Sequence record: LC788711.1
DNA from: Escherichia coli phage NG_S8
DNA: 64,000 nt
Strand: one strand, 5' to 3'
In this document: one piece after another, positions 1 to 59,117 of the stretch
How the letters are laid out: each line of letters starts with the position of its first letter
Numbering within the stretch: position 1 is the stretch's first letter
Notes under the pieces: model-generated
Seen by the model: the letters and a program-made list of their open reading frames with translations, nothing else
Database searches by the model: none
What the model was told of the DNA's origin: nothing
Position numbers and translations under genes: made by a program

Positions 1-1
1 T

Positions 2-35
2 CTAAAAAACTCAGGCAAATATGGGCCTTCGGCCC
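2..35 (-). terminator. possible intrinsic terminator (hairpin gggcc-ttc-ggccc)
   Basis: GC hairpin at 23-35 at end of leftward transcript; U-tract is distal, so weak. Confidence 0.3.
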
Positions 36-624
36 GAAATAATGCTGCTATTTTCAGTGTTCCTAAAAACTTTGGAGACTCCTATCAATGTGCAAATCCG
101 ACCATAAATTTCTAGAAACATAGTGTGCAAATCCGACAGTAAAATCCAGAAATGTGTTTTGGAAAAATGTTGTCTAGAAATAACCGCCCTCCCTATAACC
201 GCCCTGTATAGGAAAACCGGCCTAGGATATGTGACGTTGGAGAGAAACTGCCCTAGAATGCGTGAGAAACAGATTTAAAGTTTAGTGTAAACTCTAGAGT
301 TAGTGCTCAACTATTCCTAGAAACTTAGGAGTCTACTAGAAAGTGTTGGCCGTCCTAGCAGATGAGCGGCAACCGGTGTATCATCTTGAACACAAATATT
401 GCCTTTAAATATTATAAGGTAAATAAAAGTTAATATACCCCCATTTCATGAGAGTTAGCACCTCTAGGCGCGTGCGATTTGATACATCCTCCTGAGTCTC
501 GGGGAGGAAGAACAATTGACGAGAACCTGCAAGCAGAACCGTCATCAAGTATTTTCCTACGAGGAATGATGTAAATCTACGGCCTAGAGGTAAAAACAAG
601 TTGATGTTTTTAATCTATGAGATT

Positions 625-653
625 ATTATAACATGCAGCTCAAATAATGTCAA
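625..653 (-). promoter_or_regulatory. sigma70 consensus promoter, leftward
   Basis: minus-sense TTGACA (648-653) - 17 bp - TATAAT (625-630). Confidence 0.6.
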
Positions 654-670
654 GAAGATTTTGCTAACGT

Positions 671-1396
671 TTATAGATCGTGATTGACTTTGAGTATGAC
701 TCCCTTCGATGCCATGAAAAGGAATGTTGCTAGGTAAGATGACTCGGAATTTAGCGCAGAATAATCTACACTTCCCCTAGATCTAGTTTCTTGTTTAGTG
801 TCAAGAATTGTTTCGATATCAAACTTAACAGATCTTGCAACTTTTCTAGCTTGTTCAGGATCACGTAAGATTTCAAAGTGAGCAGCATCTAGAATATGGT
901 TAGATGATGTTGATTCGTCAACTATACTTAGATGAACCTGCGCAAGTGTAGATACGATTCCTAGCTTTAATTCAGATAGAGAAGAATATGGTGGTTCTAC
1001 TTTCTTTGTAAGTCTAGGGAGATGATCGTATTTACATTGCTTTTGAGGAATCATCAGAATATTAGGATAACATTCTAAACATGACTTTGCATTTCCTTCT
1101 TTAAAATGCGGGAGTTCTTTATCTGCAAAGACGTGGAATGAATCTGCTGAAAATCCTTTAATAGTAGGATCAACAGTTTGAATCAGACGACGTAAACTAA
1201 TATAAGAAGGTGCTAGAGTAACTTCTTCTGCATCTTTATTATATTTAGGTTGCCCACTAGCATTAATATATGCTGGATAAAACTCTGCACAAAATGCTAC
1301 TGCATGAGCTTCTAACTCATTAAGTTCGGAAACATTCTTTCCATTACAAGCTCTAGCTAACTTAATAATCTCTGCTAAATTCTTTTTTATACTCAT
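671..1396 (-). CDS. hypothetical protein (241 aa)
   Basis: ORF track; no motif recognised. Confidence 0.5.
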   Translation of the reverse strand: MSIKKNLAEIIKLARACNGKNVSELNELEAHAVAFCAEFYPAYINASGQPKYNKDAEEVTLAPSYISLRRLIQTVDPTIKGFSADSFHVFADKELPHFKEGNAKSCLECYPNILMIPQKQCKYDHLPRLTKKVEPPYSSLSELKLGIVSTLAQVHLSIVDESTSSNHILDAAHFEILRDPEQARKVARSVKFDIETILDTKQETRSRGSVDYSALNSESSYLATFLFMASKGVILKVNHDL

Positions 1397-1701
1397 ATAT
1401 AATCATCCGGTTTTGGTTTAGTTTTTGTTACTGATTTCACTGAAGGATCTAACTTAATCCACGTAAACCCTAGCTGCTCAGATAAGTGAGATATATTTCT
1501 AGGTGTTATTTTTATATTTGGAGGTAACTTAAATACTAGGTCTTTAAGTAACTTCATATCATCTGAACCAATGAAGAGAATATACTGCATATCTTCTTTT
1601 TGTTCATATTCGTTTTCAGATAATGTACTAACTCCGACTGTATGTTTATTGAGTGTGGCCACCTTACAGCGGCCTACAGTAAACTGAGTAATTATATCCA
1701 T
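1393..1701 (-). CDS. hypothetical protein (102 aa)
   Basis: ORF track; start overlaps upstream stop. Confidence 0.45.
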   Translation of the reverse strand: MDIITQFTVGRCKVATLNKHTVGVSTLSENEYEQKEDMQYILFIGSDDMKLLKDLVFKLPPNIKITPRNISHLSEQLGFTWIKLDPSVKSVTKTKPKPDDYI

Positions 1702-2312
1702 TAACGACCTCTAGCCTTATCTGCATCAATAGCTTCGAATACTTTCGTTAACATTTCTTCAAGCTCACCTTCTTTGCTAGGATTGCTCAAACGAATAGTA
1801 TATGAGTTCCTAGAAACTCCGGAGTCTTCTTGTGCTCCGCGATCTTTTGCAAAGCCCATCATTGCAACGCCAGCTTTATTCCACTCGTCTACGCTAGATG
1901 CTTCCCCAAACTTATATGCTTGCATATTGCTTACCACGCCACCACAAGGAACATTGTGCATATCCGACATTAATCTTTTATCAGAATTATTCAGCATTGC
2001 GATTGGCCCCGACTGCCACGGATCCCGAATAGTCACTGGAGTACTAGGGCGATTCACCTCAGTCTTCACGAGTTTGTACCCAGCATCGATTAGTGCATTA
2101 ATCAGATTATCAGCCGGGATACGAGCCGTGCCAAAGATAGCACGAGCATTCATAAGCTTAGCCTGAAATTCCTTGCAACCTTGAAGATCAGTGTGCAAAA
2201 ACGACAGTTGCATAGATTTAAACTGTACTGTAGCAGTCAGATCTTTAAAGCTGTAATCCCATGTGTCGAGTTCATGATCTGCTACTACTTTAATGGTTTG
2301 TTGTGTAAACAT
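1701..2312 (-). CDS. hypothetical protein (203 aa)
   Basis: ORF track. Confidence 0.5.
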   Translation of the reverse strand: MFTQQTIKVVADHELDTWDYSFKDLTATVQFKSMQLSFLHTDLQGCKEFQAKLMNARAIFGTARIPADNLINALIDAGYKLVKTEVNRPSTPVTIRDPWQSGPIAMLNNSDKRLMSDMHNVPCGGVVSNMQAYKFGEASSVDEWNKAGVAMMGFAKDRGAQEDSGVSRNSYTIRLSNPSKEGELEEMLTKVFEAIDADKARGR

Positions 2313-2497
2313 TATTTATTCTCCAGTTTATCTAACAGCTTACGAGCTGCGATATTGTGTTGTTTAATTTCTCTGTTAAGAATCTCGTTCTCACAGTTTA
2401 ACTCTAGATTCTTAGTATTAAGACGACTGCAAATCAGTATCAAGCCTAGAATAGTTAAGAGTGAACCGCCCAGTAATATAAGAAGTAATGTTTCCAT
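2312..2497 (-). CDS. small membrane protein (61 aa)
   Basis: ORF track; hydrophobic N-terminus. Confidence 0.35.
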   Translation of the reverse strand: METLLLILLGGSLLTILGLILICSRLNTKNLELNCENEILNREIKQHNIAARKLLDKLENK

Positions 2498-2730
2498 TAT
2501 TTGATTCCCATGTAACGTTTAAGATAAACAATGAAGTCTTCCGGTGCGTGCTCTAGGCTACCTTGAGCCACGAATAACTTCAGAGCTTCACGCTGTTGTT
2601 TGAGATTAGTAACTTTGCTACGCAACTTCACGTTATCGTCAATAACCTGATTGGCTTCACGAGTCTTATGCACAGCAGTGTTAATAGCAAATACTAATGC
2701 AATTGCTAAGATAATTAATACATATTCCAT
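2497..2730 (-). CDS. small membrane protein (77 aa)
   Basis: ORF track; N-terminal hydrophobic helix. Confidence 0.35.
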   Translation of the reverse strand: MEYVLIILAIALVFAINTAVHKTREANQVIDDNVKLRSKVTNLKQQREALKLFVAQGSLEHAPEDFIVYLKRYMGIK

Positions 2731-3017
2731 TAGTTACTCCAAATTAACATCCAACTCTTATCAAAGTTAGATGCTCTATTAATTAATTCGCCCATAGAAA
2801 TGTTATTGTTGTCTATGGCTTTTTGTACAAACTCTTTACCGAAATCATCTACTAGGTATCCTGTACCATTTATAATAATCTTGTAGAGAGCTGGAACTAA
2901 AGGATGTTGATGATTAAGAGGACTCTCGTTAACAATTATCTCATTCCTTCCCCACGTCGTCTTGAACAGTTTGTGGGAGAGTAGAGCTAAGGGGTTTGAC
3001 CAGACTACGTACTCCAT
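2730..3017 (-). CDS. hypothetical protein (95 aa)
   Basis: ORF track; overlaps upstream gene by 77 nt. Confidence 0.35.
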   Translation of the reverse strand: MEYVVWSNPLALLSHKLFKTTWGRNEIIVNESPLNHQHPLVPALYKIIINGTGYLVDDFGKEFVQKAIDNNNISMGELINRASNFDKSWMLIWSN

Positions 3018-3483
3018 CTTTCTTTAACTCCTGTTTTAACTTTTGATCTTTATTATACCAAATTATGTGCTCACCGTCAACTACAAATTTGTGGAAAGGT
3101 GCTGGTACGGTGTACACTCCATATTCTGTTAAGCGTGTCACAACTTTATGTGCACATAATCGGCAACCATGCCCTTCTAAGTGAGATCTAGCCGTTTGCC
3201 AGTAATAACCATCGTGATCTGGGCAATAGATCTCAACCTGCTGTTGCATAGTTCTATACTTAACTCTCTCATACCCAAAGAACTTACCATGTGCTTCTAC
3301 AGCTCTCCTAATAAAAATAAGATTAAGTGCGTCTTGCTGGAAGTCTGGATGAAGTTGTTTTAGCTTAGTTCTATTAATAGATCCATCTGATTTAGTGAAT
3401 CTATTTATGGGGAATTGTAATGCTTCCTCATAAAGTAATTCGTTTATTTTATTTCTCATAGTATACATGAAAGGCCAGAACAA
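2941..3483 (-). CDS. hypothetical Cys/His-motif protein (180 aa), possible nuclease-like zinc site
   Basis: ORF track; motif CPDHDGYYW...HLEGHGCRLCAH. Confidence 0.45.
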   Translation of the reverse strand: MFWPFMYTMRNKINELLYEEALQFPINRFTKSDGSINRTKLKQLHPDFQQDALNLIFIRRAVEAHGKFFGYERVKYRTMQQQVEIYCPDHDGYYWQTARSHLEGHGCRLCAHKVVTRLTEYGVYTVPAPFHKFVVDGEHIIWYNKDQKLKQELKKDGVRSLVKPLSSTLPQTVQDDVGKE

Positions 3484-3504
3484 TTAAGTCCTGGCCTCTA
3501 GAAA

Positions 3505-3927
3505 TTAGGTAGCGTCAATGCTCACTAAATCCGTTATAAATTCACCTGATTCCATAGGGATAGCGATCGCAGGGTCACACTCACAGGAGGTTATCCATTC
3601 GTCCCATTTACTATCAAGTAAAGAGATAAAGCTATCAGGACTTCCTCTTTCTTTATACCTAGCTAAATATTCTTCTTTTAGCTCTCGTTCTGGATAAAGC
3701 AAAATAAAATCTATTCCAGCAGCATGAAGAGCATCTCGTACTTCTTTATGACTAGAAACTAAGATCAGTTTACCTTCTTCTATAGCTTGTGAAATGTGCT
3801 CAATATAGTTCGCTGGAAAGTTATCCTTCTGGAACTTAGAAGAATCCGAATCTAGTACACGTGGAAAACACTTAGTGAAGTAAGTCTTACCACACCCTGG
3901 AAAAGCAGATATAACATTAAATTGCAT
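3505..3927 (-). CDS. P-loop NTPase-like protein (140 aa)
   Basis: Walker A FPGCGKTYF near N-terminus. Confidence 0.55.
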   Translation of the reverse strand: MQFNVISAFPGCGKTYFTKCFPRVLDSDSSKFQKDNFPANYIEHISQAIEEGKLILVSSHKEVRDALHAAGIDFILLYPERELKEEYLARYKERGSPDSFISLLDSKWDEWITSCECDPAIAIPMESGEFITDLVSIDAT

Positions 3928-3937
3928 AATTATTTCC

Positions 3938-4321
3938 TTAATGAAGTTGCTTGCCGTTTAAGGCCATATCAGCGGTTTCCAGAAGAGATTCAGTAATCTC
4001 ACGAGAAACTAGATATTCATCAATTGAGTGGCGGCGTTTGCAGGCATAAGCATTAACAATCAGATCTAGAGCACCAAGAACATCATGAATAGTTACTTCT
4101 TCATCCTTGTCTAACTCTTCTTTGGTAATCTCAATTAACTGGCCAACTGCCATTAAAAGCCCAAGAATATCTGCTGTTTCGCCTGCCACCAGCGGATTAG
4201 CACATCCTACTGTAAGATCGAAAGCATGATTGACAATTGACTGCCCATCAACGCTTCCTTCCTCAATCTGCTTCTCCAACTGCTTCATCTGCTCTAGCAC
4301 TGGATTTTTCTTTTGTGTCAT
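3938..4321 (-). CDS. hypothetical protein (127 aa; start moved to ATG 4321)
   Basis: AGGAA RBS 8 nt upstream of ATG at 4319-4321; track ORF 3938-4387. Confidence 0.45.
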   Translation of the reverse strand: MTQKKNPVLEQMKQLEKQIEEGSVDGQSIVNHAFDLTVGCANPLVAGETADILGLLMAVGQLIEITKEELDKDEEVTIHDVLGALDLIVNAYACKRRHSIDEYLVSREITESLLETADMALNGKQLH

Positions 4322-4730
4322 GGTAAAGATTTCCTGTATCAGTTGGAAGGAATGCCGATTGTGCCTTCGGCGGATGTTGTTTAGCAATCCAGTTGAGGAT
4401 CAGTACACGGCTAGGAACGATATCGGTATTATACCAGAAATCATGAACCCAATGTCGTGCATTTTCAAACTTACCGAACTTATACGCTTTCTTGAACAGC
4501 TCAAAACCAAAACAGTCAGGTGCAAAATCTACATCACGATAAGGAATTACCTTAGATCCGGTGAGATCTTGAATCGCTGCGTTAATCTCTGTATGCGAGA
4601 ACTTCGTTTCATGGAAAGTATTAAAGAAGCGGTAATTAAAACGTCCGTTCGTTTCGACAAACAACTGGATGAATAAATCATTAAATTGGCCATCAAACCA
4701 GTAATTCTGTAATCTTTGCAGTGCTGTCAT
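4263..4730 (-). CDS. hypothetical protein (155 aa)
   Basis: ORF track. Confidence 0.45.
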   Translation of the reverse strand: MTALQRLQNYWFDGQFNDLFIQLFVETNGRFNYRFFNTFHETKFSHTEINAAIQDLTGSKVIPYRDVDFAPDCFGFELFKKAYKFGKFENARHWVHDFWYNTDIVPSRVLILNWIAKQHPPKAQSAFLPTDTGNLYHDTKEKSSARADEAVGEAD

Positions 4731-4927
4731 TTACGAACCCCATTTATTGCTGCGATAACGCCTTCATACATGAAAGGAAGAACTTGTGAAATGTGGAAAT
4801 CTTGGACTGTCCAACCAGCTTCTTGATACATAATGTTAATGATTGCACAACTTAACATAAAAGCTGGTAGAATTATAAAGTAATCCCACGTTGCTTTCTG
4901 CAAGTTAGGGTTATAAAAATTAATCAT
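4727..4927 (-). CDS. small membrane protein (66 aa)
   Basis: ORF track; hydrophobic. Confidence 0.35.
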   Translation of the reverse strand: MINFYNPNLQKATWDYFIILPAFMLSCAIINIMYQEAGWTVQDFHISQVLPFMYEGVIAAINGVRK

Positions 4928-5027
4928 CTGTTTTTAAGTCTCCGTATTACTTTGGCCTGCTCAACGATTATGAAAGCGGCAACCACTAAACCGAAGATTA
5001 GGATTGCCGTAACAGTTGTTAAATCAA

Positions 5028-5360
5028 TCAAGGCAGACGCCAAATATAATGGGCTGTCCAAAGTGTTTCTGGTTCATCGTCATGATGCATCACTAGGGAC
5101 TCTGGAGAATAACTATTAGCCAGTTCTTTACGAACCATCTCACGTTCTTCACCAGTTTCAATATTTTTAACAATCACTTTCATATTAAGAGGAGTTAGCT
5201 CAGAAAGTGGTCGCCATAAGTCTTCCAGATCTGTTTTAGTTTTATTCTGGATGGATTGCAAGACTTCTAGTGTCTGAGGATCTACATTAATAAACCCACG
5301 TTCAGTAACAAAACCTAGAAACTCGTCCAGCAGGGTTAATTCACTAAAATTAAGCTTCAT
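5028..5360 (-). CDS. hypothetical protein (110 aa)
   Basis: ORF track. Confidence 0.45.
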   Translation of the reverse strand: MKLNFSELTLLDEFLGFVTERGFINVDPQTLEVLQSIQNKTKTDLEDLWRPLSELTPLNMKVIVKNIETGEEREMVRKELANSYSPESLVMHHDDEPETLWTAHYIWRLP

Positions 5361-5595
5361 CTTTCAGAATATCCTCGATCATGTCAGAAGATTGCTGTAG
5401 TTCGTCTACAATGCGTTTAACGTCAGTTTTTGTCACTTTACCGGCCAACATCGTGAACAGCATTGCAACGATGATGATAGGAACTGGCAGAACAAACAGT
5501 GCTACTTTACCAACGTTCTTCGGGGTCCAGGTATGATACTTAGTAACCAGAACACCAACAATAACCAGATAAAAAGCTAAGATAATTAACATCAT
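5350..5595 (-). CDS. membrane protein (81 aa)
   Basis: two hydrophobic segments. Confidence 0.45.
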   Translation of the reverse strand: MMLIILAFYLVIVGVLVTKYHTWTPKNVGKVALFVLPVPIIIVAMLFTMLAGKVTKTDVKRIVDELQQSSDMIEDILKDEA

Positions 5596-5873
5596 TTCTT
5601 AATCTCCGTGATTACCTGAGCGCGCAGGACTTTAATAGGAAGTTTAGTGTTACCAACAAGAGTTTCAATATTCGTTAGCTTTTCTTTAAGAAGATCTGAG
5701 CGTCTTTGTGCTAATTCGATATCTTCTTCCTGTTCAACGAGACGTTTAACTAGCCCATCATTGGTGAGGCGCATCCTATCCATATTTTTATTAGCATTAA
5801 TAATGCCAATGATTCCGCCAATTGCTGCTAAAGTCGTGAGAACCAGCAATCCAATTAAAATTTCTGTAATCAT
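5592..5873 (-). CDS. membrane protein with coiled coil (93 aa)
   Basis: N-terminal TM segment then charged helix. Confidence 0.45.
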   Translation of the reverse strand: MITEILIGLLVLTTLAAIGGIIGIINANKNMDRMRLTNDGLVKRLVEQEEDIELAQRRSDLLKEKLTNIETLVGNTKLPIKVLRAQVITEIKK

Positions 5874-6268
5874 TTAAATACTCCGTTGCCACATTCAATA
5901 TATGGGCTTATAGTTCTATAAAACGTGATTTTTTCTAAAGATTGGTCAATTGATTTACAAAATCTTTTGGCCTCTTCAATTTGATGCTTTATTTCTTCCA
6001 AGTCTTTCATAACGTGTGCATCTTTTACTTCAGCACCGGAATATTTTGAGAGAGCTATATCAAACTCTGCTTGATTAAGCACAAGGTTTGCTTCTGAGAG
6101 CATTTTATTACGTTTTGCTTGTTCTTTGATTTCCGGGCTAATGTACACTTGTTCAAGAGCTTCTTTCTTCTCATGCTGATTAAGCATGAGGTCACTAACA
6201 CCGAGTGTGATAGCTAGGGAGACTAGGGCATTCAGCCCTAGTACAAGTAAGAATTTTCCATTAGTCAT
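5870..6268 (-). CDS. membrane-anchored protein (132 aa)
   Basis: N-terminal TM segment. Confidence 0.45.
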   Translation of the reverse strand: MTNGKFLLVLGLNALVSLAITLGVSDLMLNQHEKKEALEQVYISPEIKEQAKRNKMLSEANLVLNQAEFDIALSKYSGAEVKDAHVMKDLEEIKHQIEEAKRFCKSIDQSLEKITFYRTISPYIECGNGVFK

Positions 6269-6537
6269 TATTTCTTACCTTTCAGTTGCTTAACTTCACG
6301 CTCAAAAGATGCTGCACGACGTTCGGCAGTTGCCTGATGCTCTTTCGCAAAACGTGCTTCTTGTTTCGCAAGGTTGAATGCCATAGCATTCTTGTTCAGA
6401 GAATCATACATCTTTTTCATTGCCGGAATAGACATCTTCATGAGCTGACCTTCAAAACCCTGCATATCGAGGAGAATTGCCAGAACGTTAGCCATTTCAG
6501 TTTTAGTCATGTTTTCCATTAGAATTTCCTCTCTCAT
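6268..6537 (-). CDS. hypothetical protein (89 aa)
   Basis: ORF track; promoter and GAGAGG RBS directly upstream. Confidence 0.5.
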   Translation of the reverse strand: MREEILMENMTKTEMANVLAILLDMQGFEGQLMKMSIPAMKKMYDSLNKNAMAFNLAKQEARFAKEHQATAERRAASFEREVKQLKGKK

Positions 6538-6551
6538 TAATTTATGAACTT

Positions 6552-6580
6552 ATTATACAGAATTTTAAAGCTAAAAGCAA
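6552..6580 (-). promoter_or_regulatory. T5-type early promoter (TTGCTT-17-TATAAT)
   Basis: plus-strand attata 6552-6557 and aagcaa 6575-6580. Confidence 0.6.
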
Positions 6581-6597
6581 TTGAATTTTTTATTTAC

Positions 6598-7029
6598 TTA
6601 CCAATCGTTAACGAAACCTGAGAACTCAGAAGCAAATACTAACTCAAATTTCTCAGCAATTTCAGGGTGATCTTTACAGATCAGTTCAATGCACTTCTCA
6701 GGTTCCATACCATCTTCTTCAGGATCACCGTAATACTTGTCCCAAAGATCATCAGGAATAACTTGCTCAGCTAGATCTTGGAAGTTCACTAACTGATAGC
6801 GTGGAGTATCCTCATTAATAAAAATCTCATGCAATTCCTCAGATACTTCTCCCTTATAATCGGAAATTAGCAGAGCATTGCAAGCAAAACATTCCCACAT
6901 CATCAAACGCTCAGAAATCGGGTTCGATTTGTCTTGAACATAGGACTGAAAGACTGCCTTAAAAGTAGATTTAACTTGCTCAAACTTATCTGCTGTTGCG
7001 ATTAAAAGTGCTTTATCAATCTTTTGCAT
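6598..7029 (-). CDS. hypothetical protein (143 aa)
   Basis: ORF track. Confidence 0.5.
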   Translation of the reverse strand: MQKIDKALLIATADKFEQVKSTFKAVFQSYVQDKSNPISERLMMWECFACNALLISDYKGEVSEELHEIFINEDTPRYQLVNFQDLAEQVIPDDLWDKYYGDPEEDGMEPEKCIELICKDHPEIAEKFELVFASEFSGFVNDW

Positions 7030-7059
7030 TTTGATTCCTTCTCATCAATTTATAAAGTA

Positions 7060-7088
7060 ATTATACAGAAAACTAAGCATTTTAGCAA
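7060..7088 (-). promoter_or_regulatory. T5-type early promoter
   Basis: attata 7060-7065, tagcaa 7083-7088. Confidence 0.55.
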
Positions 7089-7191
7089 ATGAAGTTTTTA
7101 AAATAAAAGGCCTAAGCCTAGGCCCGTAAAGAAAGAGATAAGAACTACTATCCCTATTGCTATAAATATCTCACGAGCCATGCCATCAAAA

Positions 7192-7782
7192 TCAAACATT
7201 GATATCTCCCCTCAATACCGCTGCCACATCTTCATCGATTTGGAGTACTTCACCAGTAGTGCAGTTAACCACTTTATCATAGCTTGTGAATTTGCCAGAC
7301 ACAATATCCTCTAGAGGAATAGGAGTCTTGCTCATCTCAAAAGAGACGTTGATATAACGTGGGTCACGCACAGAATTAGTGTGCACATGTCCGTGAATGT
7401 TTAGCCTACCACGAAGTTCTGCTTCGTGCAATGGACAATGTGACAGCCAAAACTTCTTGCCACCACCTGTTTGCTTACCTAGAGCCTGAATATCATCATA
7501 AACGTCTACAAGATCTTTAATATGCAGACCCTGACGCTCAGCATCGTGGTTTCCCATAATTAGTTGGTTAGGCACGTTGTGGATAACCGACTTCAACTTG
7601 GCCAACCCTTCTCGCCCCACGGCACTATCTCCTAGCAGCACAAGTTTTGTACGCTTGCCAATGTGCTTGGACAAAGTATCTAGGATATACTCATCGTGCT
7701 CTTTCATGTTCTTAAACCAGGGGCGAAAACGAAGAATCCCTGGGTGGTCTAAGTGGAGTTCACTCCAGAATTTAACTTTCAT
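7192..7782 (-). CDS. calcineurin-like metallophosphoesterase (196 aa)
   Basis: motifs GDSAVGR, GNHD, GHVH. Confidence 0.6.
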   Translation of the reverse strand: MKVKFWSELHLDHPGILRFRPWFKNMKEHDEYILDTLSKHIGKRTKLVLLGDSAVGREGLAKLKSVIHNVPNQLIMGNHDAERQGLHIKDLVDVYDDIQALGKQTGGGKKFWLSHCPLHEAELRGRLNIHGHVHTNSVRDPRYINVSFEMSKTPIPLEDIVSGKFTSYDKVVNCTTGEVLQIDEDVAAVLRGDINV

Positions 7783-7987
7783 TATTATTCCTTACACAGG
7801 TGGATGTAATAGTATAACTATCGTAGAATATACCTTTTGTGAGTCCAATTTGAATACTGGAATAATCTAGCTCACCTCCAGCTACATCACATAAGTGTTT
7901 TGTATCTTCTGCAGTAAATCTCATATTATCGTCGTAGGAATCACATCCAGCTAGTATTAGTACTGATAATAGTAGTAATCTCTTCAT
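7772..7987 (-). CDS. small lipoprotein (71 aa)
   Basis: signal peptide with lipobox LAGC. Confidence 0.5.
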   Translation of the reverse strand: MKRLLLLSVLILAGCDSYDDNMRFTAEDTKHLCDVAGGELDYSSIQIGLTKGIFYDSYTITSTCVRNNNES

Positions 7988-8355
7988 TACAGAACTTCCT
8001 CCGCATATTTATTCCAACCCTGACAATAACTACTAATACCACGAAGTTTGAATATTTCATCATAAACCTCATGGTGCTCTTTCGCTTCTTGGTAGCCTTT
8101 GTCAACCTCTTCCTGTCGTGCTTGTTCAAATTCAACACGATTCTCTAGCATCTTCCAGACTTCTTCGTACTCTGGCCAATTATGCTCTACTACGACTGTT
8201 TTAAGATCCTCTTTACCACGTTGTGCTCGACTATACCATAGTTTGGACAAGATATGCTCCAAAGTAGTAAAGTTACTTTGAGTGATATGCCCTAATTCTA
8301 TGGCTTTCTCAATATCAGATAGCTTTATAACTACATAACGTTCTTCACGTTCCAT
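7987..8355 (-). CDS. hypothetical protein (122 aa)
   Basis: ORF track. Confidence 0.5.
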   Translation of the reverse strand: MEREERYVVIKLSDIEKAIELGHITQSNFTTLEHILSKLWYSRAQRGKEDLKTVVVEHNWPEYEEVWKMLENRVEFEQARQEEVDKGYQEAKEHHEVYDEIFKLRGISSYCQGWNKYAEEVL

Positions 8356-9233
8356 TATAGAATCCTCTGTACACCACAGCTATCATTTTTATCTGTGGTA
8401 AATGTCATGATTTTACCGGCTTCATCATTAAGTTGCGCAACCGTCAACTGCCCGTTGAAAACACCGCCAGTATCGAGATAAACACGGTTCTTGTACAGAA
8501 TTGGGTAAGGAACACCAGTGTGACCATGGAATACGAAATCTACACTTTCAACTTCTGGCACTTCCACAGTCAGTTCATCTTTAAATCCTGCATAACGCTG
8601 GAAATAGGGGTGCTCTGCACCTTGCTTAGACAGATGAAAACCAATTTCCTGAATTACATCACGATCCCATAGATATGGCTCAATGTAATAACTAGGATGA
8701 TCATTAGGATCATTTTCACTTGCAGCGATATGATCAATAATATCGTCCCAATTAGGTGTATGTACATCTAATCCCGCATCTTTATATCTGAATGGTATTC
8801 CACCATGAACAACACCATATTTCTTGCCACGATGGAGTACAGTCATGAATACTGGCATTTTAACTGCCATATCTTCTGCGATACCTTTAATTGTATCGGT
8901 ATCTAGATCATTCATTGCCCACATTCCACCATTATACATCCAGTTGGCGTAGTCACCAGCAATCATAAACTGATCATGGTTGCCACGAACGCTGCGGAAG
9001 CGTGGGTTATATAAGAATTTGGCTAGAACCTGTAAGTTCTGCGGGCCACGGTCAATTAAGTCGCCAACACAGACAACATAGTCACGCTTTTCTTTATATC
9101 CTGCTAGTTTAAGAGCATCTTCCAGCATATCATTACAGCCGTGAATATCTCCTACGAAGAACAGGTTAACATCGTCTGGTACTACTAACATTTCGTGCAG
9201 GTTAAATTCTTTTTTCATTATCGAGTCATCCAA
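8355..9233 (-). CDS. serine/threonine protein phosphatase, PPP family (292 aa)
   Basis: motifs GDIHGC, GDLIDRG, RGNHD. Confidence 0.75.
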   Translation of the reverse strand: MDDSIMKKEFNLHEMLVVPDDVNLFFVGDIHGCNDMLEDALKLAGYKEKRDYVVCVGDLIDRGPQNLQVLAKFLYNPRFRSVRGNHDQFMIAGDYANWMYNGGMWAMNDLDTDTIKGIAEDMAVKMPVFMTVLHRGKKYGVVHGGIPFRYKDAGLDVHTPNWDDIIDHIAASENDPNDHPSYYIEPYLWDRDVIQEIGFHLSKQGAEHPYFQRYAGFKDELTVEVPEVESVDFVFHGHTGVPYPILYKNRVYLDTGGVFNGQLTVAQLNDEAGKIMTFTTDKNDSCGVQRIL

Positions 9234-9598
9234 TTAGTGTGTTTTTCAGCTTCTGTATCATTTGGCTCAAAGACAACGTGACAGTCTACTGCTTCCCAGA
9301 AAGATTGACGGATGATAGCATTTTGTTCTGCAATATCCAATTCTTCCCATTCTTCAAGTGTTTCTAGATCTGTATCAACTTCGGTATCACAGCCCACCAG
9401 CCCCAAAGTAACAACAATAGTAACACGGCCTTCACGTTCTTCGGGATAAGCCTCAGCATATTCCCAAGCAGCCTGTTCAACATAGTATTCTTGCTCCGAT
9501 TTAGACAAAGAGTTATACTTTTCTTCTGTGATTCCCATCTCTACAGCTCGAGTACCACAGACCACGTTGTTATGTATTATAAGATATACGTAATTCAA
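9218..9598 (-). CDS. hypothetical acidic protein (126 aa)
   Basis: ORF track. Confidence 0.5.
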   Translation of the reverse strand: MNYVYLIIHNNVVCGTRAVEMGITEEKYNSLSKSEQEYYVEQAAWEYAEAYPEEREGRVTIVVTLGLVGCDTEVDTDLETLEEWEELDIAEQNAIIRQSFWEAVDCHVVFEPNDTEAEKHTNWMTR

Positions 9599-9629
9599 TG
9601 TGATACTCCTCTTATCAATTTATACATAT

Positions 9630-9658
9630 ATTATATCAAAATTTTTAGCAGAAAGCAA
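9630..9658 (-). promoter_or_regulatory. T5-type early promoter
   Basis: attata 9630-9635, aagcaa 9653-9658. Confidence 0.6.
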
Positions 9659-9660
9659 GT

Positions 9661-9691
9661 AATAAAAAACCCAGATCAGCTAAGATCTGGG
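9661..9691 (-). terminator. intrinsic terminator
   Basis: stem cccagatc/gatctggg with U-tract on minus strand. Confidence 0.55.
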
Positions 9692-9700
9692 TTAGATTTA

Positions 9701-9991
9701 TTAATCTTCTGGATTATCTTCCAGGAAGTTTTTGATTGCGTCATGCATAGTTTCTTTACGAAGTTGACGACCAATCAGAATGTGGTTGGCTTCCACACGA
9801 CCATTAGGGAGACGATCTGCTAGAACTACTACAGGAACCTGACGAACGCCAAATTTCTGCATAAGTTCTGTGTTATCAGTCTCTTTATGAACTTCTAGAC
9901 TGTAGTCCTGTACTACTTTATCGAATACAGGCTCGAACATTTTGCACGGATTGCAGGTAGATCCCTTTAATAGATATACTAATTTACTCAT
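9701..9991 (-). CDS. thioredoxin-fold protein (96 aa)
   Basis: CNPC active-site-like motif. Confidence 0.55.
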   Translation of the reverse strand: MSKLVYLLKGSTCNPCKMFEPVFDKVVQDYSLEVHKETDNTELMQKFGVRQVPVVVLADRLPNGRVEANHILIGRQLRKETMHDAIKNFLEDNPED

Positions 9992-10394
9992 GTTTACTAA
10001 TGGCCTCCAAAAATGCCTTCATCACTTTAACAGTTGCAGTGCTAAGATCTAAGGTAGCACCTAAGCACTCAGATACAGCAGCCTGATAAGGGGCTTTTAG
10101 CCTGCCTTCCGGTACTTGTACTTTCTTATAGGTTTTCTTTTTGACTTTATCCAGCATCGTTTCAAGAACATTGAGAGGCAACTTCTGACCTTCAATATTC
10201 ACGCCAAGCTCTTCCATTAGCATGGTATTTAAGTCAATACGAGTAAGTTTCTTGCCTTTGCTAGACATACGAATTCCCACCTTTTTCTCAAGTTTTGCAC
10301 GCTCTGGTGAATCGAGGTCACGTAATGCGATGTTCAATTCATACGGAGCCATATTGTAATGGTTAGCCATCTGAGTATAGTAACGATCTGACAT
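9984..10394 (-). CDS. hypothetical protein (136 aa)
   Basis: ORF track. Confidence 0.5.
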   Translation of the reverse strand: MSDRYYTQMANHYNMAPYELNIALRDLDSPERAKLEKKVGIRMSSKGKKLTRIDLNTMLMEELGVNIEGQKLPLNVLETMLDKVKKKTYKKVQVPEGRLKAPYQAAVSECLGATLDLSTATVKVMKAFLEAISKHE

Positions 10395-10427
10395 TTGTGA
10401 AACTCCTCTGATTCAATTTATATAAAT

Positions 10428-10456
10428 ATTATATAAAAATTTCAGCGGAAAGTCAA
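10428..10456 (-). promoter_or_regulatory. T5-type early promoter (TTGACT -35)
   Basis: attata 10428-10433, agtcaa 10451-10456. Confidence 0.55.
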
Positions 10457-10469
10457 CTACTTTTTTATA

Positions 10470-10886
10470 TTAGTGTGCTTGATGTGGGAATCTCTTCCTA
10501 ACTAAGTACATAGTTATTGGATATATTGAATACATAAGTATAGGGGAGAAAAGGGTGAAATAAGCCGTGACTCCCCCAGCTAACATTAGTGGTATCAATG
10601 CTAGAGTAAGGGCCATAAGAATCATACCGAATGAGACAGCCAGGGCTACTGTGATGCAGTTCTCTAACTCCATCCAAAGCCAACAATATTTCGTATTCCT
10701 CTGGCAGTTGCATTTGCAAACGCCGAATGTGCCCATAATTATATACTCTAGCCCATGAACGACTTTCTTTAATGTATCATTTTGGGTAACTAGTGCGACA
10801 ACAGTGAGAATTATCATTAAGATGAAAATTACTAGGCTTATTTTCCATATTCCTAGTAATATCATGGTGAATAGTTCTGCAAACAT
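10470..10886 (-). CDS. holin-like membrane protein (138 aa)
   Basis: multiple TM helices, immediately upstream of endolysin. Confidence 0.5.
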   Translation of the reverse strand: MFAELFTMILLGIWKISLVIFILMIILTVVALVTQNDTLKKVVHGLEYIIMGTFGVCKCNCQRNTKYCWLWMELENCITVALAVSFGMILMALTLALIPLMLAGGVTAYFTLFSPILMYSIYPITMYLVRKRFPHQAH

Positions 10887-43347: not shown

Positions 43348-43539
43348 CTACAATTTTAAATAAGCCTATGATATTGCATTTAAATAAAAAATTTGCTTGC
43401 TTTTATTGGGAGATGTATGGTACTAGATAATCATTTTATATCGCGTACACGGGTGCGTGATTATACTATTTTTAGTAGAGGTTGGCAAATAAAATTTTTT
43501 GACTCAGATCATGTTACAGAACTTTATAGTAAAATATTG

Positions 43540-43568
43540 TTGACATCCGCCTTCGAATGAGTTATAAT
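43540..43568 (+). promoter_or_regulatory. sigma70 consensus promoter for nrdD
   Basis: TTGACA 43540-43545, 17-bp spacer, TATAAT 43563-43568; possible second promoter about 40 bp upstream. Confidence 0.65.
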
Positions 43569-56802: not shown

Positions 56803-57562
56803 ACTGAACTGGAACGTAGAAGGTGTAACCGAGTCTCTGAAAGCAAAAGCCACTGCTCTGGGTGTTGCTGTAATCTCTCAAGAACAAGTAGCTGCTATCG
56901 CTGCTGAACTGGCTACCGAGACTGGTAAAGACGTTACCGCTCGCTCTGTTGGCTCTAAGCTGCGTAAAGAAGGTTTCGAAGTACAGAAAGCAAACGAAGT
57001 ACAGAAATCCCCGTGGACTCCTGAGCAGGAAGCTGAACTGGTTGATTTCCTGAACGCTCATGCTGGTCAGTATACTTACGCTGAAATCGCTGCTGCTGTA
57101 GCTGGTGGTCAGTTCGGTGCTAAGCAGGTACAAGGTAAGATCCTGAGTCTGGAAATGACTGCTTCTGTTAAGCCAACCGAAAAAGCTGCTGCTGTTCGTT
57201 CCTTTACTCCTGACGAAGAAACTGATTTCGTTAATCAGGTTGTTGCTGGTGCTACTATTGAAGCTATCGCTGCTCACTTCGGTCGCAATATTAAGCAGAT
57301 CCGTGGTAAAGCTCTGAGTCTGCTTCGTGAAGGTCGTATCGCTGCTATGCCGGTACAGGAAACTTCAAGTGCTAAAACTCGTGAAGATCTGTTAGAAGGT
57401 CTGGATCTGGCTAACATGACTGTTGCTGAGATCGCTGAGAAAACTGGTAAGTCTGAGCGCGGTGTTAAATCTATGCTGTCTCGTCGTGGTCTGGTTGCTA
57501 AGGACTATGATGGTGCCGCTAAGCGTGCTAAACTGGATGCAAAAGCTGCGGCTGCTGAATAA
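56795..57562 (+). CDS. repeat-built DNA-binding protein, T5 D5-like (255 aa)
   Basis: four internal repeats of about 60 aa; Ala/Lys-rich with highly biased codons. Confidence 0.55.
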   Translation: MSKLNWNVEGVTESLKAKATALGVAVISQEQVAAIAAELATETGKDVTARSVGSKLRKEGFEVQKANEVQKSPWTPEQEAELVDFLNAHAGQYTYAEIAAAVAGGQFGAKQVQGKILSLEMTASVKPTEKAAAVRSFTPDEETDFVNQVVAGATIEAIAAHFGRNIKQIRGKALSLLREGRIAAMPVQETSSAKTREDLLEGLDLANMTVAEIAEKTGKSERGVKSMLSRRGLVAKDYDGAAKRAKLDAKAAAAE

Positions 57563-57580
57563 TCTGGTAAATTAAACCTA

Positions 57581-57612
57581 AGGGGAGGGGGCTATGCTCC
57601 TTCCCCTTTTTG
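57581..57612 (+). terminator. intrinsic terminator
   Basis: 10-bp GC-rich hairpin followed by ttttt. Confidence 0.65.
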
Positions 57613-57644
57613 CATTTAGAAGGCACGAAAGCGTGCAAAGGAGA

Positions 57645-59117
57645 ATGACCTTGTTTAACGTGCAAGCTGTAGTGTTGAAGATGCTTCTCGCTTCTGGACA
57701 GAAGCAAATAGCATTGGAAACATTCTCAAAACTGCATAAAGATCATTTTAATGACGCTTTCTCCTCAATTTACCAAGCCGTCCAGAATTATTATAAGAAA
57801 TATAACGCAATGCCGTCCATTGACGCACTGATGCTTGAGGCCAATAGGAACGCCCGCCTTTCTCAAGCTCTTGTCGTCTTAGCTAACACTCAAATTCCAG
57901 AAGTGAGCATGGAACAGGCGCTTGAAGTCCTAGAAGCCGAATATACACAGGATCTATTCCTGAAACTTCTAGAAACAGACGTGCTTCAAGATTTAACAAT
58001 GCTGGATCAGGGAGAAATTCTCAACCGAGTTGCCTCCCTTCACTTAAAATTAGAAGAGAAAGTAACGAATACTGGAAAGGTATTCAACGCAGACACAATG
58101 CGTATTTTCCAGAGAGAAGAAGATACCAAACTGAACTTGATCGCTCTTGGTATTTGTAATGAGTTCGACGCTCAAATTGGTTTAGCTCGCACAGAAACGT
58201 TACTGCTTGGTGGTTGGCGTGGTACTGGTAAATCCATTATCTGTTCAAACATACAGGTTCAGCAATATTTGAATGGAGACATTGCTCCATATTTCTCAAT
58301 TGAGATGAAAGAGCACGAAGTGTTTAGACGTAATCTGGCTATGTTAGCTGGAGTATCTGCATTAGCAATGCGTAACAACACTCTTGAAGGTGCTGCTCTG
58401 TTGAGATTAGCCAGAACTAGGGCTAGGATGTTTAATGGTGGTGAAGAGCTTTTCGATAACTTCGTTAAGCAATACACTATGGCTAAAATGAGTGACTTCT
58501 ATGATATGGAAAGTAAACTCCTTGAAGGCTATGAGCTTCACACTCCTATGATCATCGTTTACGATCCTGAACTGTCTATTACGACGGTTGACGTAGAATT
58601 AAATAAACTAGTTGCTAAGTATGGTGATAAGGTTACTGTAGCTCTTCTAGACTATATTAACCAAACAAGACTTCCAGATTCAAAGACCATTGATATGTAT
58701 GACTGGAAAGAACAGATGGTTGTTAGTTCATCTTTCAAATCTATCTGCCAGAAACATAACGTGGCTGGTGTTGCCCCTTACCAGATTGACCAAGATGGTA
58801 GAACGCGTATGTCTAAAGGGATTCTTGATTCCGCAGATATGGCTGCTAATCTTAATGCTGCAAAAGCTGATAACGGTCAAGGTGCTATTATGTTTGACTT
58901 CGTTAAGACTCGTTCCTCTGATAGTGTGAAGTTTATGCCTAAGATGAACTGGGAAACTCTACGAATGGATAACACTACCAACCTAGCAATGGAAGATATT
59001 GCGCAAATGGAAGCTGAGTTCGTTATTCCTATTGAAAAGGATAAACCAGCTCAACCTAAACGTGCTAAGAAAGACAAAGCTGAAAATTCAACAGGTGAAC
59101 AGGCCAGCGATATATGA
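57645..59117 (+). CDS. replicative helicase-like ATPase (about 490 aa)
   Basis: Walker A GGWRGTGKS; AAGGAG RBS before ATG 57645; track ORF starts at 57594. Confidence 0.65.
   Translation: MTLFNVQAVVLKMLLASGQKQIALETFSKLHKDHFNDAFSSIYQAVQNYYKKYNAMPSIDALMLEANRNARLSQALVVLANTQIPEVSMEQALEVLEAEYTQDLFLKLLETDVLQDLTMLDQGEILNRVASLHLKLEEKVTNTGKVFNADTMRIFQREEDTKLNLIALGICNEFDAQIGLARTETLLLGGWRGTGKSIICSNIQVQQYLNGDIAPYFSIEMKEHEVFRRNLAMLAGVSALAMRNNTLEGAALLRLARTRARMFNGGEELFDNFVKQYTMAKMSDFYDMESKLLEGYELHTPMIIVYDPELSITTVDVELNKLVAKYGDKVTVALLDYINQTRLPDSKTIDMYDWKEQMVVSSSFKSICQKHNVAGVAPYQIDQDGRTRMSKGILDSADMAANLNAAKADNGQGAIMFDFVKTRSSDSVKFMPKMNWETLRMDNTTNLAMEDIAQMEAEFVIPIEKDKPAQPKRAKKDKAENSTGEQASDI

Follow-up and report, generated by a model that had tools for sequence, protein, structure and literature searches.

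Genomic setting

The 64,000-nucleotide stretch of Escherichia coli phage NG_S8 analysed here (sequence record LC788711.1; hereafter the window) comes from a T5-like (Epseptimavirus-type) phage, and its positions 1–655 are a non-coding control region abutting the inner boundary of the left terminal repeat. The region consists of a left part (1–400) carrying direct repeats and conserved blocks, and a right part (∼420–653) carrying a leftward consensus promoter and a candidate RNA that folds into a long rod. In the reading that explains the region best as a whole, to which we assign a probability of about 0.7, the left part is a set of DNA sites and the right part is an independent non-coding RNA gene. 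The repeats and their position are already known from the T5 annotation (Repeat Region 3); the promoter-driven rod RNA appears to represent a new RNA family that is kept throughout the T5 family.

Over its first 3 kb the window shares 99.8% identity with Salmonella phages 9-29, 1-29 and 1-19, and about 440 T5-like records are related to this stretch. Window position 5 pairs with position 10141 of T5 (AY587007), whose annotated left terminal repeat (LTR) spans 1–10139. Window positions 5–390 align with T5 10141–10528 at 78.8% identity, and the homology of positions 1 to ∼274 is with T5 10140–10409, directly to the right of the LTR end. A second T5 record gives the same boundary after correction of its 80 bp offset, and the boundaries transferred from Stitch (repeat end 9982) and phiR2-01 (9901) lie no more than 6 nt from that of T5, all three at window positions 2–8. 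The window starts 2–8 bases inside the repeat, the T5-equivalent boundary being between positions 2 and 3 (TC/TAAAAAAC, where the slash marks the boundary). An earlier sequence-only reading of the window, made without database searches, had supposed both a T5-like genome and a start just inside the terminal-repeat boundary, and these alignments agree with it on both counts.

Promoter and candidate RNA

The promoter matches the sigma-70 consensus at 12 of 12 positions, as the sequence-only reading had recognized, and in addition carries a TG extended −10 element. Only two 12/12 sites occur in the 64 kb, and only this one also has the TG. The start-site pattern TATAAT-N4-TCATAnATT, which we take to be that of the T5 promoter PN25, is found four times in the window against 0.07 expected, and here it gives a predicted transcription start (+1) at position 618. 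An operator palindrome at the start site was considered and dropped because AATCTCATAGATT is largely the start signature of the T5 promoter class. In 19 of 23 relatives a near-consensus leftward TG promoter is found at the corresponding position with 10/12 or better, the remainder having TTGCAT as the −35 element, and TGnTAT(A/C)AT is present at a conserved position in all 37 distinct sequences recovered. The promoter position is also kept in phiR2-01, My1 and Sugarland, with 12/12 and the TG in Sugarland. The second 12/12 promoter of the window (TTGACA-17-TATAAT without the TG, at 43540 on the plus strand) stands back to back with an 11/12 site at 43488 on the minus strand and looks like one half of a divergent promoter pair.

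A transcript starting at 618 and ending near 420 would consist of a short 5′ hairpin (P1), a rod of about 130 nt (P2), a terminator-like hairpin and a U-rich tail (Table 1). The minimum free energy (MFE) of this RNA is −64.3 kcal/mol, and the MFE structure coincides with the centroid; the z-score is −4.76 and none of 200 shuffled sequences is as stable. Genuine tRNA genes of the window, taken as adjacent pairs, reach the same stability at a higher G+C content. A tRNA/tmRNA scan found nothing in 1–700, the tRNAs being located at 18.9–29.2 kb. The most stable 190-nt stretch of the 64 kb is at 57476–57665 on the plus strand (MFE −71.4 kcal/mol, G+C 0.48), outside the tRNA cluster.

The 3′ arm of the end hairpin is an invariant G-run, and all eight types of the RNA analysed (A–H) end in such a hairpin with a U-rich tail after it, at folding free energies (ΔG) of −2.3 to −17.1 kcal/mol. 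This arrangement suggests that most transcripts would stop near 420, before reaching the repeats. The main transcript end is thus predicted to lie most likely there, and not at the GC hairpin at 23–35 where the sequence-only reading had placed it; that hairpin does exist and is conserved, but it received no terminator call and belongs to the boundary block described below.

Rfam returned no match for the window at E values up to 1 or for five other loci at E values up to 0.1, no account of such an RNA and no transcriptome of a T5-like phage was found in the literature searched, and the unit is unannotated in the T5 records and in the other GenBank records examined. An antisense or host-derived RNA was rejected: no complementarity of note was seen to the remainder of the window, and a search of 5,426 E. 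coli genomes gave no match. The retron anti-defence protein Rad was also considered as a link and set aside, being located in the tRNA region and unrelated.

Conservation of the predicted RNA architecture

At least ten mutually unalignable rod types, from phages including T5, EPS7, Stitch, HdH2, AKFV33, phiR2-01, My1 and Sugarland, have a single architecture in common: a short 5′ hairpin, a rod of 95–157 nt, a hairpin with the invariant G-run and a U-rich tail. The fold z-scores are between −3.4 and −6.3 in nine types, with six types at −4.8 to −6.3 and two My1 constructs at −5.43 and −4.16. The sense strand folds better than the antisense strand in all eight types of a first comparison and in nine of ten overall (My1 included, Sugarland excepted), by 3–13 kcal/mol. 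The unit of promoter, hairpin, rod and G-run recurs with new rods in Yersinia phage phiR2-01, Pectobacterium phage My1 (Mccorquodalevirinae) and Klebsiella phage Sugarland (Sugarlandvirus), in each case between the repeats and the first leftward gene, and it is present in all three Demerecviridae lineages examined. In two relatives with a type A RNA (L012 and L060), an insertion of about 750 bp sets the RNA promoter apart from the homologue of a 241-residue protein gene, so that the RNA unit can be separated from the protein gene beside it.

Since the rods could not be aligned across all types with MAFFT, per-type and covariance-model alignments were used instead. The 11 sequences of type A contain no broken pair, their variable columns being either unpaired or changes of C-G to U-G. 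Compensatory double changes occur at three pairs among the nine sequences of type B, and at three pairs of P1 among types D, E and F. A covariance model built from D, E and F only recovers types A and C at full length and at the right coordinates; its single match in the window is 434–618 on the minus strand, with an E value of ∼1e-10. Pairing is found in 93.6% of the cells of the alignment made with this model, compared with 86.2% for shuffles and 34–47% for slid controls; eight pairs vary on both sides, and the covariation score is 0.152 against 0.060, a value reached by none of 500 shuffles.

Table 1. Features of window positions 1–655, in order of position; negative numbers lie to the left of the window.
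Feature	Position	Strand	Remarks
Near-invariant block, right half	1–57		Whole block ∼115 bp, ∼−55 to +57; left terminal repeat ends inside it
GC hairpin/palindrome GGGCC-TTC-GGCCC	23–35		Invariant in all Markadamsvirinae examined
Palindromic motif M1, CCTAAAAACTTTGG	62–75	+	Conserved in alignment; related copies at 2–15 (boundary) and 316–329
Direct repeat D, TGTGCAAATCCGAC	89–102	+	Exact; T5 direct repeat D copy 7
Direct repeat D, TGTGCAAATCCGAC	124–137	+	Exact; T5 direct repeat D copy 8
Invariant block GGAAATGTGTTTTG.GAAAAATGT..CTAGAAATAACCGCCCTCCCTATAACCGCCCT	160–223	+	From alignment of relatives
ATAACCGCCCT repeat	180–190, 195–205, 213–223	+	First two exact, third degenerate; within the 160–223 block
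Direct repeat D copy 9, degenerate remnant	261–274	+	CGTGAGAAACAGAT here; TGTGCAAATCCGAT in T5 and others
Conserved block TTCCTAGAAACTTAGGAGTCTA..AGAAAGTGTTG.GCC.TCCTAGCAGATGAGCGGCAAC.GGTGTATCATCTTGAA	313–391		Right edge is the end of sequence conservation
A+T-rich spacer	392–419		Sequence differs between lineages; length and composition kept
Mechanical open reading frame	405–599	−	64 residues from TTG at 599; 46 residues from ATG at 545
Candidate non-coding rod RNA	420–618	−	Predicted +1 at 618
U-rich tail	436–420	−	After terminator-like hairpin
Terminator-like hairpin ACUCUCAU-GAA-AUGGGGGU	455–437	−	G-run forms 3′ arm
P2 rod, ∼130 nt	591–460	−	Part of rod RNA
P1 5′ hairpin	611–605 with 598–592	−	Part of rod RNA
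T5-type start-site signature AATCTCATAGATT	Just after −10	−	T5 promoter class
Sigma-70 promoter	625–653	−	−35 TTGACA 653–648, 17-bp spacer, TG 633–632, −10 TATAAT 630–625

Boundary block, direct repeats and conserved motifs

In alignments of 22–24 relatives the stretch from −55 to +57 is nearly free of variation, and the end of the repeat falls in the middle of this block (...CCTGTGGCTC/TAAAAACTCAGGC...). The annotated repeat ends of three genomes all lie inside the conserved ∼115 bp, within 6 nt of one another. The window has six A residues at 4–9, exactly at the repeat boundary (TCTAAAAAAC), and all relatives, even those that are 99.8% identical, have five (CTCTAAAAAC); the extra A may be a homopolymer sequencing or assembly difference at the start of the contig or record. 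In Sugarland (MG459987) the homologue of the boundary block (GGGGTTGACACAGAAAAAATTCCTGTGGCTC/TAAAAAAC, locus ∼3480) is found ∼340 bp to the right of the repeat end predicted by PhageTerm (10138), so that either the PhageTerm end is imprecise or the boundary has moved. Positions 1–36 of OR848837.1 (3,447 bp, ‘Listeria phage LM 4-14-1’) match window 5–40 from the very first base of that record, which resembles a T5-like contig broken at the repeat boundary and is possibly a contaminant.

The two exact 14-mers of the window are copies of direct repeat D (DRD) of T5. The annotation of AY587007 places DRD copies 1–6 inside the LTR, beside the major nick, and identifies the 14-mers of the window with copies 7 and 8, copy 9 being further to the right. 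According to a preprint on T5 (Davison, 2020; 10.1101/866236), Repeat Region 3 extends 270 bp past the LTR; nine DRDs are listed there with no function given for them and no promoter mentioned. The closest relative shows the corresponding layout when the sequence is extended leftward, as the sequence-only reading had recommended: a group of six DRDs occupies −464 to −255, a pair follows with copies at +89 and +124, every copy has the same strand, and the boundary lies inside the 344-bp gap between the left and right groups. T5-like contigs contain five to seven exact 14-mers each in a fixed layout. With up to three mismatches allowed, TGTGCAAATCCGAC has 13 matches in the window against 4.2 expected, a number reached in none of 100 shuffles.

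The repeats noted in the sequence-only reading are real. Its duplicated 14-mer has two exact copies, the second being one nucleotide to the right of the 123–136 that it gave. The taaccgccct repeat corresponds to ATAACCGCCCT, which is present twice exactly and a third time in degenerate form (Table 1). The CTAGAAA-type motifs that it listed are clearly in excess, CTAGAAA occurring five times in 1–700 against 0.27 expected and CTAG ten times against 3.1. DRD-like and ATAACCGCCCT-like repeats are also found in My1 and Sugarland. In an alignment of 24 distinct relatives, near-invariant blocks are located at 8–57, 160–207 and 313–391, and sequence conservation ends at ∼391. The promoter, repeats, motifs and hairpin are all kept in these 24 relatives and hence are not due to chance; a lack of conservation of the repeats in relatives had been named beforehand as an observation that would refute the sequence-only reading. 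Since the hairpin at 23–35 never varies, covariation neither supports nor opposes it. It is absent from My1, is not directly followed by a T run on the transcribed strand and was not called in the terminator scan.

The DRD core TGTGCAAAT is, by direct sequence comparison, one mismatch from the relaxed DnaA-box consensus TT(A/T)TNCACA (reverse complement TGTGNA(A/T)AA); no perfect DnaA box occurs within 1–700. A DRD-like 14-mer further along the window (TGTGGATAACCGAC, 7578–7591, plus strand) begins with nine bases that are a perfect DnaA box (TGTGGATAA), which shows how close the DRD unit is to such a box. DRD-like 14-mers are also present on the plus strand at 1955–1968 (TGTGCATATCCGAC, one mismatch) and 2192–2205 (TGTGCAAAAACGAC, two mismatches), inside a minus-strand gene for a 203-residue protein. 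T5 has an annotated DRD copy 10 in the homologous gene, ORF019, and an exact 14-mer persists there in several relatives, ∼1.8 kb to the right of the boundary; a DNA site conserved within a coding region would be unusual.

No significant motif common to the left and right repeat boundaries of T5 was found, the matches being short and at chance level, the longest of them TAACCGCC-like. Approximately 35 nt inside the left genome end, T5 (AY587007) has CTAACCGCCACCCCC at 33–47, which resembles the ATAACCGCCCTCCC repeat at window 180–193; it is the sole motif that both boundaries have in common and alone it is not statistically significant.

Published records disagree on ‘hypothetical protein’ coding sequences (CDSs) over the DRD array and the boundary, with calls at 2487–3017 (minus strand) in L005, 1759–1965 (plus strand) in L175 and 2340–2477 (plus strand) in L006. 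The curated T5 records have no CDS across the array and the boundary, and the calls are probably over-predictions in repeat DNA.

Positions 1–420 are only weakly structured as RNA (z = −2.2 for the minus strand and −1.4 for the plus strand). This weak folding, together with the known DRDs and the conserved blocks, leads us to read 1–400 as DNA sites. The boundary block, the DRDs, ATAACCGCCCT, CTAGAAA and the CCTAAAAACTTAGG motifs would be binding sites for proteins, and their position suggests that they may mark the repeat boundary, or serve in its processing, during the cutting and packaging of concatemers. The sequence-only reading had offered an operator or iteron array or a non-coding RNA as alternatives for the whole region; a conserved repeat array and an RNA candidate are both present, but most probably as two separate things and not as a single 600-nt transcript.

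Proposed function and alternative explanations

In the proposed mechanism, ∼420–653 would be an independent gene for a non-coding RNA of ∼200 nt transcribed leftward from 618. As the first DNA of the second transfer step enters the cell, host sigma-70 polymerase would make this RNA in bulk. The rod sequence has been swapped wholesale while the shape, the promoter, the 5′ leader and the G-run have been kept, suggesting that the RNA is likely to be recognized by its shape rather than by its sequence. The stable structured RNA would then act in trans, most likely by binding or titrating a protein.

Several observations weigh against this interpretation. The existence of the RNA is predicted, as are its +1 and its 3′ end; the terminator hairpin of the window at 437–455 was not called in the terminator scan, and several terminator hairpins are weak (to −2.3 kcal/mol), so that substantial read-through into the repeats is possible. 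The Sugarland rod is weak (z = −2.2) and its antisense strand folds slightly better. Type A, to which the RNA of the window belongs, shows neither compensatory nor disruptive changes. The D/E/F covariance model misses types B (T5-type), G and H (the AKFV33 and phiR2-01 RNAs), for which homology is argued from position, promoter and architecture. The alignment used to count pairs across types was itself fitted to the model, a procedure that favours the structure. For the trans role, which is suggested by the conservation of shape, no target, partner or complementarity was found. Lastly, the absence of a significant motif common to the left and right T5 boundaries speaks against the putative role of the block and the DRDs in forming the genome ends.

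The main rival to an RNA gene acting in trans is a unit acting in cis, in which leftward transcription, or an R-loop or primer RNA, would run through the A+T-rich spacer and the DRDs to the boundary and activate replication or duplication of the terminal repeat, or cutting by terminase. It has analogues in T7 phiOR with the concatemer junction, in ColE1 RNA II and in the promoter-plus-unwinding-element origins of T4 and T7. The order of promoter, G-run RNA, ∼30–40 bp of A+T-rich DNA, repeats and boundary block persists from T5 through to My1 and Sugarland, which is consistent with such a unit, as are the closeness of the repeats to the DnaA box, the weak terminators of several types and the fact that the RNA gene always lies beside the non-coding region, the flanking protein gene being variable. 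However, type D has a canonical strong terminator (ΔG −17 kcal/mol, then UUUUUCUUU), which should stop most transcription before the repeats. Strand-specific RNA structure is conserved with compensatory changes, which argues that the RNA product itself matters, and published electron microscopy, known here through a secondary source, puts the T5 origins at internal positions. We therefore regard a cis-acting unit as unlikely.

A related question is whether the promoter and rod-RNA unit is functionally coupled to the adjacent boundary at all. Transcription toward the boundary block might be needed to cut or duplicate the 10-kb repeat in concatemers, as with T7 phiOR, or the RNA itself might be a cofactor or primer. 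Coupling in either form seems to us rather doubtful.

A single unit, as in the sequence-only reading, would be one ∼600-nt transcript that crosses an operator or iteron array and stops at the 23–35 hairpin. The direction of the promoter fits, the hairpin is invariant with TTTTTT on the minus strand 13 nt after it, and the 437–455 terminator is not strong in the type found in the window. This explanation is nevertheless improbable, since the hairpin fails the terminator criteria, the block that contains it is equally conserved for 55 bp into the terminal repeat, 1–420 folds weakly as RNA, My1 keeps the RNA unit without the hairpin, and the structured RNA occupies only ∼420–618 and has its own terminator-like hairpin.

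The long hairpin could instead act as DNA, in cruciform or single-stranded form, as an origin or as a recombination or packaging site, the RNA being incidental. The antisense strand is also significantly structured (z = −2.1 to −4.9), in Sugarland slightly better than the sense strand, and type A contains no covariation that separates RNA pairing from DNA pairing. Against this, the greater stability of the sense strand in nine of ten types is accompanied by G·U pairs at least as numerous in the sense fold as in the antisense fold in seven of eight types, and in every lineage the hairpin lies between a consensus promoter and a U-rich tail. In addition, the C/U-rich arm of the terminator hairpin is joined to the G-run by G·U pairs, which only the transcribed strand can form. 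A role as DNA thus has little probability.

Finally, the promoter might express a small protein of 46–64 residues from the open reading frame (ORF) at 405–599. The sequence-only reading found this ORF unconvincing, rightly in that it is not conserved, but it is not devoid of an ATG and ribosome-binding site as that reading held, since an internal ATG is present at 545 with AGGA 9 nt upstream. Phage 1-29 has the ATG-545 version annotated as a CDS and a CDS is also annotated in EPS7. The ORF is lost in EPS7, however, and is frameshifted or truncated to 35 residues in eight of 11 close type A variants. The other types carry unrelated ORFs of 22–43 residues in different frames, with none common between types. 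No PHROG or Pfam family was found for it, all three neighbouring genes having PHROGs, and the curated T5 annotations have no CDS at the rod-RNA locus. A conserved, expressed small protein had been named in advance as a finding that would count against a non-coding region; no conserved ORF is present, the ORF at 405–599 is judged to be non-coding and a protein product is very improbable.

Significance and comparison with known systems

Two questions in the biology of T5, long used as a model phage, are touched by these results, namely the role of the conserved repeat-rich non-coding region and the formation of the 10-kb terminal repeats. What is added is that an invariant block with DRD arrays on either side has the repeat boundary at its middle, and that the first DNA of the second transfer step carries an unannotated candidate non-coding RNA gene with a consensus promoter. 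The body of this RNA has been replaced at least ten times with its shape kept, a pattern typical of molecules recognized by shape or of host–phage conflict. Coupling of the unit to the boundary, if true, would be the first molecular handle on the formation of T5-type repeats and on the role of Repeat Region 3. For annotation, many GenBank records place spurious hypothetical proteins over the RNA and the repeats.

The left part of the region resembles Repeat Region 3 as well as the injection-stop (iss) region of T5, with DRD copies 7, 8 and a degenerate 9 in the same place relative to the LTR end. It differs from the published descriptions in that these stop at the repeats, with no mention of a promoter or RNA to the right. 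The part represented in the window is outside the DNA transferred in the first step and so cannot itself be the injection stop signal.

With regard to the rod RNA, two small structured RNAs offer comparisons. The phi29 pRNA is a phage RNA of ∼174 nt with its own strong promoter near the genome end. The rod RNA is similar in size, strong promoter, location near the left genome end and lack of coding capacity; it differs in being a single long rod, and no pRNA match was found in Rfam. T5 packages its DNA with a terminase, and we know of no RNA requirement in that process. The 6S RNA is a rod-like molecule of ∼184 nt that binds sigma-70 RNA polymerase, the host enzyme on which T5 relies throughout infection. 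The rod RNA is comparable in length, rod shape and expected high abundance, whereas its rods have small bulges only, with no large central bubble in any type and no 6S match in Rfam.

Transcription-primed origins (ColE1 RNA II, the T7 primary origin and T4 oriF/oriG) resemble the region in having a promoter, a G-run RNA, A+T-rich DNA and iteron-like repeats in this order, and differ from it in that a terminator follows the rod RNA here and that the T5 origins are reported, through the secondary source noted above, to be internal. At the terminase sites of other phages (lambda cos, SPP1 and P22 pac and the T7 concatemer junction with phiOR) the site of action is flanked by repeated binding sites. 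A terminase role at the T5 boundary would be by analogy with these, from which it differs in that the left and right boundaries have no significant motif in common. The likeness lies in a genome end inside a strongly conserved block, in repeats of the same orientation on both sides of it, six DRDs being on the left side and two or three on the other, and in a promoter without a downstream gene that points at the junction.

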